From assembly GCF_009931435.1 (NCBI RefSeq), contig NZ_CP043414.1: DNA of 64,000 nucleotides; one strand, written 5' to 3'. Positions 7,140 to 50,897 of the stretch are shown here, piece by piece. Below the pieces are notes generated by a model. That model had not been told where the DNA came from and searched no databases. It was given only the letters and a program-made list of their open reading frames with translations. Numbering within the stretch: the stretch's first letter is position 1; every line of letters begins with the position of its first letter. A program made the position numbers and the translations under genes. This stretch comes from Escherichia coli. Its GTDB lineage: Bacteria > Pseudomonadota > Gammaproteobacteria > Enterobacterales > Enterobacteriaceae.

Positions 7140-7205
7140 TTTTAGCTCCTTGAGCGGAATTAATCGATTTGCTGACTATTCAGAAAATAATTAAGCGAAC
7201 CGTTA

Positions 7206-43701: not shown

Positions 43702-45261
43702 TTACTTAATATCTTTCACGCGCATACCGTTGATCTGTTCATCCGTGATGGTATTACCCGCTTTAAAGTAATCAACCACCGCGTGATAAACGTAATAACC
43801 GCCCGTCGTATTGCGCGCTTTACCCTCGGTAAACGCGGTAAAACCATCTCCACCATCAGCAAGGAAACTCTGAGTGGCAATGTGGTAAACCGTCGCATCT
43901 TCAATCGGTTTGCCATTCAGAGTCAGCGAGATAACCCGCTGACCAACCGGCTTGCTGCTGTCGTACTTCATTTCCAGGCCTTTCGATACCTGTAAAACGC
44001 CATTACTCAAACTTGCGCCGTGTTCCATCAAACCGCGTAATTGTTTACCCGTGAGTTCCATCGTCACCAGTTCGTTGGGGAACGGGAAGGTACTGATGAC
44101 GCCACCCATCGTAATTGCACCCGCCGGGATCTCATTGCGAATCCCACCAGAGTTGGTTAACGCCAACTGGGTATTTTTACCCGCCGCTACCAGTAAAGCG
44201 TCCGCCGCCAGGTTCCCCAGGGATGCCGATTCACCATAGGCACGTTTTAATTCAACTGGCGATTGCGCCACCGTTTGCTGCACGACTTCATCCAGCTTTT
44301 TATTCCAACTATCAATCACCTGTTTTGTTTGCGCATCGGGCTTCCACTCGTCGGCGTAAAGGGTTTTAAGCTCGAAGTTTTTCACCGTAAAAGTGTGCGG
44401 TTTCTCTTTGAAGTCGAGAACCAGTTTACCCACATCAATCCCTCCGCTGTCAGTGGAAAGGATGAGCGTATTGCCGACTTTAATCGGTTCCGGCGTACCC
44501 ACATGTGCATGTCCGGTGATCAAAATATCCAGCCCTTTCACCTGACTTGCCGTCTGTATATCTTTATCCAGCGCGCGACGCACATCTGTGCCTCCCATAC
44601 TGGACTGGCGGGCCGGAACACCTTCGTGAATCAGGGCGACGGTCAAATCAACCTTGCCTTTGAGTTCATCGATATAACGTTGTAACCACTTAATTTCATC
44701 ACGCGCTTCAATACCCACTCGCGTGGCAGCGGATACCGTGTCATTAAAGGCAAATACTCCGTGCAAACCAATCACACCAATTTTCACGCCGTCTTTTTCA
44801 ATAATGGTATATGGCTTATCCCAGAATGATTTACTGCTGTTCTGATAAAAAATATTACCCTGCACAATCGGGAATTTTGCCTGACTCAACTGTAATAGGG
44901 TGTTGTCCCAGCCGTGATCAAATTCATGATTCCCTATAGTGACCGCATCGAACGGCATGGTATTCATAATATCGATAATCGCCTTGCCTTTAGTCAGGCT
45001 GCTGATATACGGCCCGGTAAAATAGTCACCCGCATCAAAAAACCAGGTCGCTTTGTTTTTAGCTTTTTCTTGTTTAACAAGCGTAGTGATATTTGCCCAG
45101 CCGCCAATATCCCGTTTACCGTCAGCAATCCACGGCACTTTATAAGGCTCTACATGTGCATGGAGGTCGTTGGTATAAATAATGGTGACATCTTTGGCGC
45201 AGGCCCAAAACGGCAGTGTTAATGCGATACCCGCAGCAAGCATTTTAATTTTCATAAACAA
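43702..45261 (-). CDS. Periplasmic bifunctional metallophosphatase / 5'-nucleotidase, UshA-like (paralog 1)
   Basis: 519-aa ORF with signal peptide ([17 protein letters not shown]), calcineurin-like motifs ([20 protein letters not shown]) and a C-terminal 5'-nucleotidase domain. Not in the K-12 metF-metL interval. Confidence 0.85.
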
Positions 45262-45387
45262 TCCCTTCCAGTGAGATAAAGGATTGCTACATTACGTTCT
45301 GAAAGGCTTTTTTATGTGAGAATACTCACATCCAGAGGCGATAACTGTAGGACAAAATCAACGACCTTATGAAATCGTTGGTGATAT

Positions 45388-46515
45388 ATGTCAAATCTGT
45401 TTGCGATTAATGTCTGTAAAACGTTCGGTTGTCGAAATTTGGGATTGGCCTCATCGGAAGATTACAGTTGGCCAGACTATAAACTGGGTTTTCCGGCACT
45501 GCACTGCCAGGCATGCGGAAGTTACCCCCCTTTGTTTGATGAACAACAATTTCGTGACTGGTTGTCAGTTCACATGACTGCGTGTGCCATAGAAACAGGG
45601 CATTTTTGTCCATCATGCTATTGTAAAGAAAAGATTTTTTATGGCCACAACCCGCAGGGAACACAACGCGTTCAATGCCGTTCATGCAAAAAAGTCTGGA
45701 CTCCGAAACAGCAGCCAGCAAGAGAAATTACGTATCCCCAGTCCATTGAAACCGTTCAACTGTTCATGCCCTTTCAAGGAGCCAGCGCAGTACAAAAGCT
45801 CTATGTTTTAGTCAGTCTTGACGCCACTCGTGGCAACATCCTTCATCTCTCCACGAATTATACGCAACATCAGACAGGAGACAGTCTGCGGTACAGTTAC
45901 AGAGGCAATACAGAACCAACTGAGCACCATAGCGATATTGTGCAGAGGGTAGATATGCGTGAAGCGCAATTCTTGCGCCGGAGCCAGTTCGATGAAATTC
46001 AGTATGGCAGTGCTGTGCTCAAGCGCAACGGCAAGGGAGCCATACTACGCCCGGTTATCACGGCACACGGGCATTTCAGAATACTGAAAATCCGCTTTCC
46101 ACATGTCAAAACGCATATCATTTCACACGAATGTTTTCTGAGAGGCGCAATTATTACAGCCTGGGCAGATCAGTTCCGCCAACAACAAGGCGAACTTTGG
46201 TTCGTAGAAGAAGAAATCAGCGACCGTAACGCTGATATTCCCTGGCATTTTCAGGGAACGACATACCATGGTTGGTGGCAAAATCAGTGGCAACGCTGGG
46301 GGCAGGGGAATAACAGCAAGATGGTCTGCCTGCTCACAGGAGTCTCCTTAGAAAGGGGCGCAAATGTTTCTCTGGCAACCAGTCGTTGCTTTATCACATG
46401 GCTGACAGACCAACACGACTTTACCCAAAGCGCGTTATTATCCGCAGGTCGCGTAACGAAAATGCTGACCTCACTGGCGTTAAAATACAATGAATCGCTC
46501 ACTCCATCTTGTTAG
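45388..46515 (+). CDS. Hypothetical protein with N-terminal cysteine cluster (putative zinc-ribbon), function unknown
   Basis: 375-aa ORF divergent from paralog 1; N-terminus has CKTFGC, CQACG, CPSCYC and CRSCKK motifs within about 100 aa. I do not recognise the family. Confidence 0.6.
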   Translation: MSNLFAINVCKTFGCRNLGLASSEDYSWPDYKLGFPALHCQACGSYPPLFDEQQFRDWLSVHMTACAIETGHFCPSCYCKEKIFYGHNPQGTQRVQCRSCKKVWTPKQQPAREITYPQSIETVQLFMPFQGASAVQKLYVLVSLDATRGNILHLSTNYTQHQTGDSLRYSYRGNTEPTEHHSDIVQRVDMREAQFLRRSQFDEIQYGSAVLKRNGKGAILRPVITAHGHFRILKIRFPHVKTHIISHECFLRGAIITAWADQFRQQQGELWFVEEEISDRNADIPWHFQGTTYHGWWQNQWQRWGQGNNSKMVCLLTGVSLERGANVSLATSRCFITWLTDQHDFTQSALLSAGRVTKMLTSLALKYNESLTPSC

Positions 46516-46744
46516 TCAATACACTCGACAAACGACCATAAATTAATGGGATCACTATTTCTCATTTAATTAAATATATGAATGTATGACTGAAAAATAT
46601 AATCACAGTCAATGTTTAATTAATAACATTATTTGTTACTAAGATCACATAATACTTTCCTGACCTATGCTCTTATAAAAATAAGACACGGTGTTCCTTT
46701 TATTTAAATAATTCAACCAATGTAACAACCCCTATCAAGGAGGG

Positions 46745-48298
46745 ATGATGAGAACTGTATTTACGACTTTATCAGTCATATTCAGCGTGATGTTTTCTCA
46801 CAGTATACTAGCTCAGGACGTTACTATTTATTATACGAATGATATTCACGCACATGTCAATCCGGCAAAAATTCCCGCTGTTGATAAGAACAGACTTGTA
46901 GGTGGTATGGCTAATATTGCAGGCATCGTTAATGAAGCGAAGAAAAAAAACAAAGATGTCTTTTTCTTTGATGCAGGCGACTATTTTACCGGTCCGTATA
47001 TCAGTACCCTGACCAAAGGTGAAGCTATTATTGATATCATGAACACCATGCCCTTTGATGCGGTGTCCGTTGGTAATCACGAGTTCGATCACGGCGTGCC
47101 CAATATGGTATCTCAGTTATCAAAAGCAAAATTCCCCATTCTGCTGGGAAATATTTACTACACCGATACAAATAGACCAGTTTGGGATCATCCGTGGACC
47201 ATTATCGAAAAAGATGGTTTAAAGATTGGTGTGATTGGATTGCATGGTGCATTCGCTTTCTATGATACAGTCGCGGCAAAAGCACGTGAAGGCGTAGAAG
47301 CCAGAGACGAAATTAAATATTTAAATAAAGCACTTGCAGAATTAAAAGGTAAAGTCGACATTACCGTTTTGCTAATTCACGAAGGTGTTCCGGCGCGTCA
47401 ATCAAGCTTTGGTAGTAAAGATGTGGAGCGGCTACTACAGGCAGATATTGAGACAGCTAAAAAAGTGAATGGTGTTGATGTCTTAATTACCGGTCACGCA
47501 CATGTCGGAACACCGCAACCAATAAAAGTTAATAACACATTAATTGTATCTACCGATGCATACGGCACCGACATCGGAAAACTTGTGCTTGATTACAATC
47601 CGAAAACAAAGAAAATTGATAGTTATAATGGTGAGTTAATCACCATCTTTGCAGATCAATTTAAACCTGACACCATCGTTCAAAATACTATCGATAAATG
47701 GAGCGTAAAGCTTAACAAAATCACACAGGAAGTTGTCGGCCATTCTCCCGTAGTTTTAACACGTGAGTATGGCAGTTCTTCTTCTACCGGTAACCTTATT
47801 CTGGATGCAATGATGGAAAAAGCACCTGATGCCATTGCCGGATTTCAAAATAGCGGTGGGATGCGAGCTGATTTTCCTAAAGGTGATATCACACTGGGAG
47901 ATGTTATTAGCACATTCCCCTTTAATAATGACCTCATCGAGATGGATTTGACGGGCCGCGATCTCAAATCATTGATGACGCATGCAACCAATCTAACTAA
48001 CGGTGTGTTACAGGTTTCAAAAAGCGTTGCGGTTGTCTATGACAGCAAAAAACCACTCAACCAGCGGTTAATCTCTTTCACCATTAACGGCAAACCCGTG
48101 GAAGATAATCAAACATATCGTATTGCCACGCACTCCTTTTGTGCCAGTGGTGGTGACGGTTTTGAAGCATTTTTGAATGGAAAAAATGTGAAGACGATAC
48201 CGGGAACAACCTCGGCGGAATCTATCATCGATTATTTCAAAAATCATAAACCTGTCACCCCAGACTTAACTAAACGAGTCATGGACGTCGCCAAATAA
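46745..48298 (+). CDS. Periplasmic bifunctional metallophosphatase / 5'-nucleotidase, UshA-like (paralog 2, most divergent)
   Basis: 517-aa ORF with signal peptide ending ILA-QD and the same NDIHAH / GNHEFDHG / GHAHVG motifs. Confidence 0.85.
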   Translation: MMRTVFTTLSVIFSVMFSHSILAQDVTIYYTNDIHAHVNPAKIPAVDKNRLVGGMANIAGIVNEAKKKNKDVFFFDAGDYFTGPYISTLTKGEAIIDIMNTMPFDAVSVGNHEFDHGVPNMVSQLSKAKFPILLGNIYYTDTNRPVWDHPWTIIEKDGLKIGVIGLHGAFAFYDTVAAKAREGVEARDEIKYLNKALAELKGKVDITVLLIHEGVPARQSSFGSKDVERLLQADIETAKKVNGVDVLITGHAHVGTPQPIKVNNTLIVSTDAYGTDIGKLVLDYNPKTKKIDSYNGELITIFADQFKPDTIVQNTIDKWSVKLNKITQEVVGHSPVVLTREYGSSSSTGNLILDAMMEKAPDAIAGFQNSGGMRADFPKGDITLGDVISTFPFNNDLIEMDLTGRDLKSLMTHATNLTNGVLQVSKSVAVVYDSKKPLNQRLISFTINGKPVEDNQTYRIATHSFCASGGDGFEAFLNGKNVKTIPGTTSAESIIDYFKNHKPVTPDLTKRVMDVAK

Positions 48299-48332: not shown

Positions 48333-49958
48333 ATGCGAATGAAAACAGTGCAGCGTACTTTACTTGCCGCAACATTGCTGACTATTTTTTCGGTTTCAGT
48401 CATGGCGCAGGATGTCACGATTATTTATACAAATGATCTTCACGCTCATGTGGATTCTTATAAAGTGCCGTATATCGCAGACGGAAAACGCGACATTGGC
48501 GGCTTTGCCAATATATCTACTTTAGTAAAACAAGAGAAAGCGAAAAATAAAGCCACCTTTTATTTTGATGCTGGAGACTATTTCACCGGCCCTTATATCA
48601 GCAGTCTGACAAAGGGCGAAGCAATAATTGACATTATGAATACCATGCCTTTTGACGCAGTATCAATCGGTAATCATGAGTTTGACCATGGCTGGGATAA
48701 TGCCCTGCGACAATTAAGCAAAGCGAATTTTCCTGTTTTATTGGGCAATGTTTATCATAAAGAGAGTGAGAAACCCTTCTGGAACAAGCCCTACACCATC
48801 CTGGAAAAAGATGGCATCAAGATTGGTATTATTGGGCTACACGGCGTATTTGCATTTAATGATACGGTCTCGGAGCTCTCTCTCCAGGGACTCGATAATG
48901 ACAATAATAACCGCTTTGATAAATCTTCCGAGACCCTTAAGAATCAGGGGATTGAAGCACGTGATGAAGTGAAGTATTTGCAACATTATATCGACGAGTT
49001 ACGTGATAAGGTTGACCTCACTGTGGCGCTGGTTCATGAAGGCGTTCCGGCGCGTCAGTCCAGCATTGGCAATACAGATGTTAGACGCGCTCTTGATAAA
49101 GATATTCAAACCGCTAGCAAGGTGAAAGGATTGGATATTCTGATTACCGGGCATGCCCACGTCGGAACGCCAGAACCAATCAAAGTCGGCAACACCTTAA
49201 TCCTTTCAACTGATAGTGGCGGTATCGATATTGGTAAATTAGTCCTTGATGTCAACCCTACAGCTCGTACCCATAAAATGAAGAGCTTTGAGCTGAAAAC
49301 AGTTTATGCCGATGAATGGATACCCGATCCAACGACACAAAAAGTTATCAATGGCTGGAATAAAAAACTGGCGGATATTGTACGCCAACCAGTGGGTGAA
49401 TCATCGATTGCATTAACTCGCGCCTATGGTGAGTCATCGCAACTAGGCAACCTGTTTACCGATGCAATGCTTGTCGCTGCTCCGACTGCACAGATTGCAT
49501 TGATAAACTCCGGCAGCTTACGTGCGGATATAAATGCAGGCACGATTACCTTTGGCGACATTACCAGTACATTCCCCTTCAAGAATGAACTTACTGAAAT
49601 GGATCTCAGCGGTAAGGATCTGCGTAACCTACTGGAACACGGGGCATCGCTTACCAATGGCATCCTGCAAATGTCAAAAGGCGCAGAAATGCGCTATACC
49701 CCGCAGAAACCAGTAGGTCAGCGCATAGTATCTTTTAAAATTAATAGTGAAGAGATCGTTGATACGAATATTTACCATGTTGCAACAACGACTTTCCTTG
49801 CACTGGGGGGCGATGGTTTTCTGGCATTCAAAGAAGGGAAAAATGTTCAGGTCCGCGCCGGAAATAACATGTCCGATGTCGTGATCGATTATTTGAAGAA
49901 AGGCCACAAGATTACGCCTGCACAGGTAAATGAAATGCGGGTGGACGTTAGCAAATAA
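48333..49958 (+). CDS. Periplasmic bifunctional metallophosphatase / 5'-nucleotidase, UshA-like (paralog 3)
   Basis: 541-aa ORF, about 70 percent identical by eye to paralog 1, with an extra roughly 25-aa insert (ELSLQGLDNDNNNRFDKSSETLKNQ). Confidence 0.85.
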   Translation: MRMKTVQRTLLAATLLTIFSVSVMAQDVTIIYTNDLHAHVDSYKVPYIADGKRDIGGFANISTLVKQEKAKNKATFYFDAGDYFTGPYISSLTKGEAIIDIMNTMPFDAVSIGNHEFDHGWDNALRQLSKANFPVLLGNVYHKESEKPFWNKPYTILEKDGIKIGIIGLHGVFAFNDTVSELSLQGLDNDNNNRFDKSSETLKNQGIEARDEVKYLQHYIDELRDKVDLTVALVHEGVPARQSSIGNTDVRRALDKDIQTASKVKGLDILITGHAHVGTPEPIKVGNTLILSTDSGGIDIGKLVLDVNPTARTHKMKSFELKTVYADEWIPDPTTQKVINGWNKKLADIVRQPVGESSIALTRAYGESSQLGNLFTDAMLVAAPTAQIALINSGSLRADINAGTITFGDITSTFPFKNELTEMDLSGKDLRNLLEHGASLTNGILQMSKGAEMRYTPQKPVGQRIVSFKINSEEIVDTNIYHVATTTFLALGGDGFLAFKEGKNVQVRAGNNMSDVVIDYLKKGHKITPAQVNEMRVDVSK

Positions 49959-50036: not shown

Positions 50037-50897
50037 ATGTGTATAAAAAAGCACGGGATAGCTTTATCGATTCTATTAATACCTTGCATTGGAAACGCTC
50101 AGGAAATTAAAAGTGAGGAAGGCTGGTTACATCAAAGCTTGAATGTCATTGGTCGCACAGACTCTCGCTTTGGCCCAAGGCTGACTAACGACCTCTACCC
50201 TGAATATACTGTAGCAGGAAGAAAAGACTGGTTTGATTTTTATGGTTATGTTGATCTACCAAAATTCTTTGGCGTCGGCAGTCACTATGATGTTGGGATC
50301 TGGGATGAGGGCTCACCACTATTTACGGAAATAGAACCTCGGTTTTCCATTGACAAATTGACCGGATTAAATCTTGCGTTCGGCCCTTTTAAAGAATGGT
50401 TCATTGCAAACAACTATGTCTATGATATGGGTGACAACCAGTCATCCCGGCAAAGTACATGGTATATGGGGCTTGGTACAGATATCGACACGGGTCTACC
50501 AATTAAGCTTTCTGCCAATATATACGCCAAGTATCAGTGGCAAAACTATGGTGCCGCTAATGAAAATGAATGGGACGGATATCGATTCAAAATAAAATAT
50601 AGCATTCCTCTTACCCATTTATTCGGAGGGCGATTGGTATACAATAGTTTTACTAACTTTGATTTTGGCTCCGATCTTGCGGACAAATCACACAATAATA
50701 AACGAACCAGTAATGCTATTGCTTCAAGCCATATCCTTTCCCTGCTATATGAACACTGGAAATTTGCATTTACACTACGTTATTTTCACAACGGTGGACA
50801 ATGGAATGCTGGGGAGAAAGTTAACTTCGGAGATGGTCCATTTGAATTAAAAAACACAGGATGGGGAACCTATACTACTATTGGTTATCAATTTTAA
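50037..50897 (+). CDS. Tsx-family nucleoside-specific outer-membrane channel
   Basis: 286-aa ORF with signal peptide; [110 protein letters not shown]...GYQF follows Tsx nearly block for block. Confidence 0.88.

Follow-up and report, generated by a model that had tools for sequence, protein, structure and literature searches.

A predicted CRP-partnered regulator derived from an IS1-like transposase beside the nucleotidase genes of the Escherichia coli metF-metL island

What is a cysteine-rich protein of no assigned family doing among a group of nucleotidase genes? This question is raised by the open reading frame (ORF) at 45388..46515 on the plus strand of the window, by which we mean the whole 64,000-nucleotide stretch of E. 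coli DNA analysed here (contig NZ_CP043414.1 of assembly GCF_009931435.1). The ORF starts with ATG and encodes a 375-amino-acid zinc-ribbon protein that we call ZnX; it is listed in RefSeq as the hypothetical protein WP_000067197.1, and 252 of its close homologues bear the name 'cytoplasmic protein'. A previous reading, made from the DNA sequence without database searches (hereafter the sequence-only reading), had offered two speculative candidates: a regulator of the flanking nucleotidase genes, or a domesticated or degenerate zinc-ribbon transposase of IS1595-like architecture. Our results favour the view that both hold at once, and we lean towards regarding ZnX as a domesticated, immobile derivative of an IS1-like transposase that regulates, together with CRP, genes for nucleotide and nucleoside scavenging. 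Rather than a mobile element, it is probably a regulator of a kind not described before, and our literature searches found no publication on this protein family.

The four cysteine pairs remarked on by the sequence-only reading are real and conserved. They comprise C10-x4-C15, C40-x2-C43, C74-x2-C77 (plus C79) and C97-x2-C100, and in an alignment of 47 family members, which share 21-71% identity with the window protein, there is no variation at C97 and C100, and conservation is at least 90% at C10, C15, C40, C43 and C77, C74 being the exception. Such conservation across the family indicates that the metal-binding ribbons are genuine and that the cysteines are not there by chance. Zinc ribbon 2 (C74, C77, C97 and C100; 45607..45687, plus strand) is of the IS1 InsA type, whereas zinc ribbon 1 (C10, C15, C40 and C43; 45415..45516, plus strand), each cysteine of which is at least 90% conserved, is extra relative to InsA; in the AlphaFold2 model described below, ribbon 1 contains a strand pair at residues 26-30 and 37-40.

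The homology to IS1 InsA is weak for the window protein alone and clear at the level of the family. Alone, the protein matches Pfam Zn_ribbon_InsA at E 0.043 and the NCBIfam IS1 model at E 4e-4 (NF033558, 20.4 bits against a cut-off of 100), and it reaches 15.1 bits against NF050000, for which the cut-off is 28; these InsA/IS1 zinc-ribbon matches are confined to residues 74-136. Its relatives score 29-34 bits against NF050000 (IS1/IS1595 zinc-binding domain), above the cut-off, and match the NCBIfam IS1 transposase model over positions 1-81 at E ~1e-9, and 7 of the 47 family members match Pfam Zn_ribbon_InsA at E<=1e-3. When the family profile was aligned with E. coli IS1 InsA by hhalign, the match extended over 79 columns, through the ribbon and the helix-turn-helix, at 96.6% probability and E 6e-10. 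In this alignment the row of the window protein is gapped opposite InsA residues 46-85, indicating that the enterobacterial metF-metL clade has lost the helix-turn-helix, an insert that is kept in the longer relatives (about 420-520 amino acids); at the site of this deletion of about 45 residues the window protein has a short linker (45688..45741, plus strand). A profile search for a zinc ribbon together with a DDE or helix-turn-helix domain had been proposed as a check, and its outcome was divided: the InsA-type ribbon was recovered at the family level, a DDE domain was not, and the helix-turn-helix that follows the ribbon in the IS1 family is missing from the window protein. The suggestion of a domesticated transposase thus stands, and the IS1595-like part of it does not, IS1 InsA being the closest relative. 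PF12760 was matched by 0 of the 47 members at E<=1e-3 and by 4 at E<=0.1, and no member matched DDE_Tnp_IS1595. In contrast to the zinc-ribbon transposases of IS1595 and IS1249 (an IS256 variant), the matches of this family end after the ribbon or helix-turn-helix, with scores far below the cut-offs and with no catalytic motif.

The remaining portion of the protein, some 270 residues that the sequence-only reading could not place, proved just as elusive in our sequence searches: residues 105-375 have no significant match in Pfam, NCBIfam, PHROGs, PADLOC or PDB. The PDB sequence search returned just compositional matches to zinc fingers, no PADLOC defence-system family was matched at E<=1, and when ten relatives were searched against PHROGs and NCBIfam, the N-terminal ribbon or the helix-turn-helix was matched and the C-terminal domain never. 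The family is small and accounts for 123 of the 50%-identity clusters formed from 1.84 billion proteins. Structure prediction, which had also been proposed as a check, gave a confident AlphaFold2 model from the family alignment, with a predicted local distance difference test score (pLDDT) of 93.4 and a predicted template modelling score (pTM) of 0.93. In this model, residues ~119-317 (45742..46338, plus strand) form a five-stranded mixed sheet with the characteristic order of strands and helices of the RNase H-like fold, superposable on known cores, and they are followed by a C-terminal helical region (residues 321-371; 46348..46500, plus strand) with conserved Y367 and N368. Foldseek matches in the PDB were weak (best E 2.4e-3), and all of them were RNase H-like: PIWI of short Argonautes, EndoV, UvrC, ISCth4 and Mu. 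In the AlphaFold database, Foldseek returned family members exclusively, some named 'IS1 family transposase' and others 'cytoplasmic protein'. The RNase H-like superfold of the predicted C-terminal domain can thus be considered secure, and given the InsA module, its assignment to the transposase branch of this superfold is the most parsimonious reading, if not a proven one.

The canonical Asp-Asp-Glu (DDE) triad is not conserved in this domain. With the catalytic positions mapped by the order of secondary-structure elements rather than by residue-level superposition, the centre of strand 1 (T122) is Thr or Ser in 45 of the 47 sequences, and the position after strand 4, where an Asp is expected, is R221-P222. 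E248 is the sole column of the C-terminal domain that is acidic in 47/47; D202 is acidic in 40/47 and D145 in 34/47. It is on this single universally acidic column and on the residues at the two Asp positions that the loss of the triad is based, and the protein is apparently catalytically dead, as judged from the alignment and the model. The RNase H-like pocket has conserved residues of its own (R198, D202, Y206, H229, H247, E248 and R252), and this remodelled pocket may be a ligand-sensing or oligomerization domain.

Compared with IS1, the family shares the order of modules of InsA and InsAB', namely an InsA-type CxxC...CxxC ribbon, an InsA helix-turn-helix in most members and then an RNase H-like domain. 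InsA is a DNA-binding repressor that recognizes the IS1 ends. ZnX differs from InsAB' by the extra N-terminal ribbon, by the lack of a DDE triad, of a frameshift and of inverted repeats, and by being a single-copy, syntenic gene; from InsA by the absence of the helix-turn-helix in the window clade; and from InsB by a C-terminal domain of about double the length, with additional strands and helices and no detectable sequence similarity.

The gene is an immobile derivative of an IS1-like transposase and not a jumping gene. Of 5426 complete E. coli genomes, 1841 have a region matching the ORF, in every case at a single place; the same metF-metL site is occupied in E. coli and Citrobacter, and the gene is present in many enterobacterial genera. 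Compared with diverged alleles, the ratio of nonsynonymous to synonymous substitution rates (dN/dS) is ~0.08-0.11, at a dS near saturation. According to the sequence-only reading, full-length homology to a known insertion sequence (IS) transposase with intact flanking inverted repeats would have made the gene simply a mobile element; no such homology was found, and no terminal inverted repeats surround the ORF, except for two CRP-like palindromes that pair with each other and are for that reason not read as transposon ends.

Separately, we observed that some genomes carry the module at two loci, namely E. coli SCPM-O-B-8794 (L017/L022), Citrobacter sp. wls619 (L030/L045) and Escherichia sp. 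MOD1-EC7003 (L015/L041). These genomes have the short metF-metL pair and a second arrangement in which nucleotidase 3, Tsx, nucleotidase 2 and nucleotidase 1 are followed by the divergent zinc-ribbon gene, and it would therefore appear that the module spreads as one piece together with its target genes. In Salmonella enterica subsp. arizonae (L044 6927-7726), residues 127-368 alone are left and the candidate operator and CRP site described below are absent; this looks like a deletion that removed the 5' part of the gene together with the shared promoter.

The neighbourhood of the gene is very strongly conserved as well, and together with the promoter module described below it gives the other candidate, a regulator of the flanking nucleotidase genes, strong though indirect support from comparative genomics. 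In the window, the gene is divergent from the gene for 5'-nucleotidase 1 (43702..45255, minus strand), which encodes a Metallophos and 5_nucleotid_C protein with a signal peptide and is its conserved partner, and two further nucleotidase genes and then a Tsx-like porin gene lie downstream on the plus strand, which bears out the divergent placement within a nucleotidase island. A scan of a genome collection with a 14-sequence alignment gave 58 loci, whose neighbours were identified by tblastn. A Metallophos/5_nucleotid_C nucleotidase lies directly beside the zinc-ribbon gene in about 50 of these 58 loci, and most of the remaining loci are cut by a contig end or contain only a gene fragment. The two genes diverge in Enterobacteriaceae and form a tandem, nucleotidase first, in Vibrio, Photobacterium, Enterovibrio, Psychromonas and Thaumasiovibrio, with a gap of 15 bp in the V. 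mimicus and P0161 loci, those that were checked. When all neighbouring ORFs in Vibrionaceae were clustered, the nucleotidase and zinc-ribbon pair was the sole constant among otherwise differing contexts.

Subfamilies at 22-30% identity have other partners. The gene is divergent from a TAL-add-deoC-deoA-deoB-deoD operon and flanked by genes for TatD and a Bmp nucleoside ABC transporter in one subfamily, divergent from deoB-PNP-nucleoside:H+ symporter genes in another, and 41 bp downstream of a nucleoside phosphorylase gene in a third. Elsewhere at this level of identity, it adjoins genes for an EndA-like nuclease and an LTD protein, lies divergently to genes for a porin, a class B acid phosphatase and a phosphodiesterase, or is divergent from another nucleotidase gene. 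Altogether, 9 of the 10 sampled subfamilies (the window clade included; relatives at 22-70% identity) adjoin genes of nucleic-acid, nucleotide or nucleoside catabolism.

The divergent promoter region contains a conserved cis-module. Three footprints are evident in an alignment of this intergenic region from 28 loci: a TTACGTTCTGAAAG block, a CRP core and an invariant AAATCGTTGGT. In the window, the TTACGTTCTGAAAG block (45292..45305) lies between the CRP site and the nucleotidase start and probably includes the nucleotidase core promoter. The CRP site (45315..45330) is a perfect consensus core, TGTGA-N6-TCACA, which is conserved across loci and is the sole perfect match in the window. The invariant AAATCGTTGGT, at 45372-45382 directly upstream of the ATG, reads ACCAACGATTT on the minus strand; here lies the candidate operator that we call the ACCAAC box (45372..45385), which reads ATCACCAACGATTT on the minus strand toward the nucleotidase gene. 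About 40 enterobacterial loci are identical in ACCAACGATT. A related box, ACCAACACAwwwGGAAACT, together with a CRP-like site, is present at the nucleotidase promoters of Vibrionaceae.

Two other interpretations of the box were tried and rejected. It is not a degenerate distal CRP site by inspection, as its halves match neither TGTGA nor TCACA. Upstream of the ATG, CAACGA...TCGTTG forms an imperfect repeat that was also flagged as terminator-like when the minus strand was considered and could be drawn as an RNA stem-loop; among the 28 loci its left arm varies without compensatory changes and its right arm is invariant, and for this reason we take it to be a DNA site.

Measured from the first base of the box, the CRP core is centred 59.5 bp away in almost all cases. 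When all 1.12 Mb of the fetched loci were scanned for A[CT]CAAC with a CRP core (<=2 mismatches) after it at offsets 20-99, 61 matches were obtained at offset 52, which corresponds to the spacing of 59.5 bp, versus 0-8 at any other offset. These composites occur in at least seven clades, and many of the 61 are orthologous. Independent clades with a composite include the enterobacterial divergent pair, a clade at 38-40% identity (ACCAACTGATTT) and Vibrionaceae, and further ones are the phosphatase-linked, deo-operon and deoB-PNP subfamilies; variants of the box are present at the same position in further loci, the PNP-linked one included. A CRP-partnered transcription factor would be expected to have its operator at a constant distance from a CRP site at the promoters concerned, and the box, as a candidate operator, shows this arrangement. 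By itself, the box motif (AAATCGTTGGTG, <=2 mismatches) shows no enrichment in the rest of the window, and none of the K-12 promoters of tsx, deo, udp and cdd has the composite, K-12 being a strain without the island that carries the zinc-ribbon gene.

Several further features of these promoters were observed. One locus of the phosphatase-linked subfamily (L009) has three composites, at 7169, 7981 and 9420, facing the porin-phosphatase-phosphodiesterase operon, the region beside the zinc-ribbon gene and a major facilitator superfamily (MFS) transporter gene, which hints at a small local regulon. In many Vibrionaceae loci (L053, L055, L058-L061 and L067), a LacI-type palindrome, GCAAACG(T/A)TTGC, separates the box from the CRP site at ~-100 to -115 from the nucleotidase ATG, and suggests that a CytR/PurR-class repressor may also control these promoters. 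The inner block of the IS1 inverted repeats reads CCAAC-TTAY-TGATT/A at the ends of K-12 IS1A (L079 97-140 and 820-864), and several ACCAAC boxes (L048, L067, L074 and L009) share its sub-motifs CCAAC and TGAT(T/A) with a different spacing, for example, CCAAC-TGATTT in L048 and L067, and CAAC-N6-TGATAGTGT in L074 versus CCAAC-TTAT-TGATAGTGT in the right inverted repeat (IRR). A descent of the box from a transposon end is only suggestive from this resemblance.

We propose the following model for how such a protein could act. With its extra N-terminal ribbon, its InsA-type ribbon and its RNase H-like domain lacking the DDE triad, ZnX would bind the ACCAAC box sequence-specifically and act together with cAMP-CRP on the divergent 5'-nucleotidase gene. 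If the nucleotidase promoter uses the minus-strand -10 element TAATGT (45294-45289), CRP would be placed at ~-41.5 and the centre of the box at ~-92. In enterobacteria, the box also lies between a putative -10 element of the zinc-ribbon gene itself (CAAAAT, 45353-45358) and its ATG, so that occupancy of the box would also repress the gene's own transcription. In this model, recognition of the box, the joint action with CRP, the sign of control and any ligand are inferred.

This arrangement resembles the CytR/CRP-controlled nucleoside-scavenging promoters of E. coli (deoP2, udp, cdd and tsx) both in the scavenging theme and in the combination of a promoter-near CRP site with a second protein site ~50 bp further upstream. 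At the classical CytR/CRP promoters, a distal CRP site occupies the position that corresponds to the box (~-92). The module described here differs in that the distal site is an ACCAAC box rather than a second CRP site, and the associated protein is not a LacI-family repressor. Regulators derived from transposases are known, including eukaryotic domesticated DDE transposases and the bacterial TnpB-derived TldR repressors, and as in these cases, catalysis has been lost and the protein has been kept by the host at fixed loci, apparently for recognition of specific promoter sites. In contrast to TldR and the eukaryotic examples, the source is IS1-like, a fixed-phase partnership with CRP is proposed, and the regulon would be one of nucleotide and nucleoside scavenging. 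To our knowledge, domesticated DDE-type transposases with a host function are well known in eukaryotes and rarely documented in bacteria.

Several points weigh against this proposal. DNA binding and regulation by the protein are predictions from comparative genomics, and the box could belong to another factor that merely co-occurs with the zinc-ribbon gene. Since the window clade is without the helix-turn-helix, any contact with DNA would have to come from the zinc ribbons or from a partner; yet nothing in its intergenic region is more conserved than the box. The weak Foldseek matches in the PDB favour PIWI and EndoV, leaving the transposase branch unproven by structure alone, and alignment of the family profile with IS1 InsB by hhalign gave 0.2% probability, that is, no detectable similarity. 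The subfamily contexts were sampled at one to three loci each, and one subfamily is located after Tsx-like, sulfatase and maturase genes rather than beside nucleotide genes. No composite was found in three subfamily loci (L072, L076 and L077), and a reverse metagenome scan with ACCAACAC-N44-45-TGTGA-N6-TCACA, which was underpowered, gave 59 sites, a chance-level number, with no homologue nearby, and is therefore uninformative.

Other explanations of the gene have to be set against this regulatory one. ZnX might be an accessory scavenging protein, either binding or processing nucleic acids or nucleotides in the cytoplasm through its RNase H-like pocket, or acting on the nucleotidase as a partner protein, for example, a chaperone or an inhibitor before its export. 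We consider this unlikely. Its subfamilies pair with very different enzymes, both cytoplasmic (PNP, DeoB and the deo operon) and secreted, and partners that differ so widely fit a regulator better than a specific protein partner; moreover, the InsA DNA-binding module is kept family-wide, a fixed-phase box beside CRP co-occurs with the gene, and the pocket has no conserved metal-binding acidic triad. Still less probable, in our view, is a transposase relic kept for a DNA transaction, for example, site-specific recombination or binding at a fossil transposon end, with the ACCAAC box as the fossil inverted repeat. Such a relic would agree with the RNase H-like fold and with the presence, at a different spacing, of the inner-block sub-motifs CCAAC and TGAT(T/A) in the boxes of several subfamilies. 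However, the DDE triad is not conserved, the synteny is stable, and there is one box per promoter with no paired ends around any segment; a box phase-locked with a CRP site is a transcriptional arrangement.

The idea of an active or recently active insertion sequence, or of a decaying pseudogene without host function, is effectively refuted. The 'IS1 family transposase' name on some database entries of relatives and the weak scores of the window protein against IS1 transposase models might be taken in its favour, but the NCBIfam score is 20 bits against a cut-off of 100 and there is no similarity to InsB. Nor does the gene behave as a mobile or decaying element would: there are no terminal inverted repeats, one copy is present per genome, the chromosomal site is the same across genera, and the reading frame is intact with dN/dS ~0.1 at near-saturated dS. 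Returning to the domesticated regulator, a more far-reaching version may be imagined, in which catalytically dead transposases of IS1 origin form a gammaproteobacterial family whose members serve as dedicated co-regulators, with CRP, of nucleic-acid, nucleotide and nucleoside scavenging, with an operator derived from an IS1-like inverted-repeat inner block and with the RNase H-like domain as a sensor. Such a family would be the bacterial counterpart of the eukaryotic regulatory circuits built from a transposase and its transposon ends. We put this version forward tentatively, as a possibility that we do not at present favour.

The setting of the gene is an accessory island. The gene order in the window is gldA-yijF-yijE-katG-metF, the island and metL-metB on the E. 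coli chromosome, and strains such as IAI39 and CE10 match the window at 99.7-99.9% identity. The island is not in K-12, whose metL-metF gap of merely 348 bp identifies the region as accessory. In a 2026 paper on the avian pathogenic E. coli (APEC) strain BEN2908, this region is named 'GR 31 metL..metF' and is listed with a Tsx-like channel, 67% identical to Tsx, and three UshA/YfkN-like nucleotidases, without the ORF at 45388-46515; the island occurs in extraintestinal pathogenic E. coli (ExPEC) and APEC strains (PMC12928451). In the window, 5'-nucleotidase 2 is encoded at 46748..48298, 5'-nucleotidase 3 at 48339..49958 and the Tsx-like nucleoside channel (porin) at 50037..50897, all on the plus strand. 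The Tsx-like ORF is intact in the window, with 286 amino acids and the C-terminal aromatic residue typical of outer-membrane proteins; the IAI39 copy is marked as an incomplete pseudogene in RefSeq. A second CRP-like site with one mismatch, TGTTACTAAGATCACA (46634..46649), lies ~100 bp upstream of nucleotidase 2, without an ACCAAC box.

A short type of the island is common in E. coli, and in it the zinc-ribbon gene and the convergent metL share 37 bp at their 3' ends (L002 9095-9131). Between the window and this type, the nucleotidase 1 protein is 97-98% identical and the zinc-ribbon protein just 72%, and the alignment of the intergenic regions (window 45262-45387 versus L002 7869-8000) diverges from about the CRP site onward; together, these observations point to a recombination junction inside the divergent promoter.

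In summary, if ZnX is the regulator that we propose, it would represent a new class of bacterial transcription factor and would give a role to a gene that thousands of Enterobacteriaceae and Vibrionaceae genomes carry under the bare name 'cytoplasmic protein' or the misnomer 'IS1 family transposase'. It would also add a new regulatory input, the ACCAAC box with CRP, to periplasmic nucleotidases, deo-type operons and nucleases for extracellular DNA, genes that matter for phosphate and carbon scavenging in gut and marine settings. In addition, it would provide an example of a transposon DNA-binding module, and possibly of transposon ends, becoming host circuitry.

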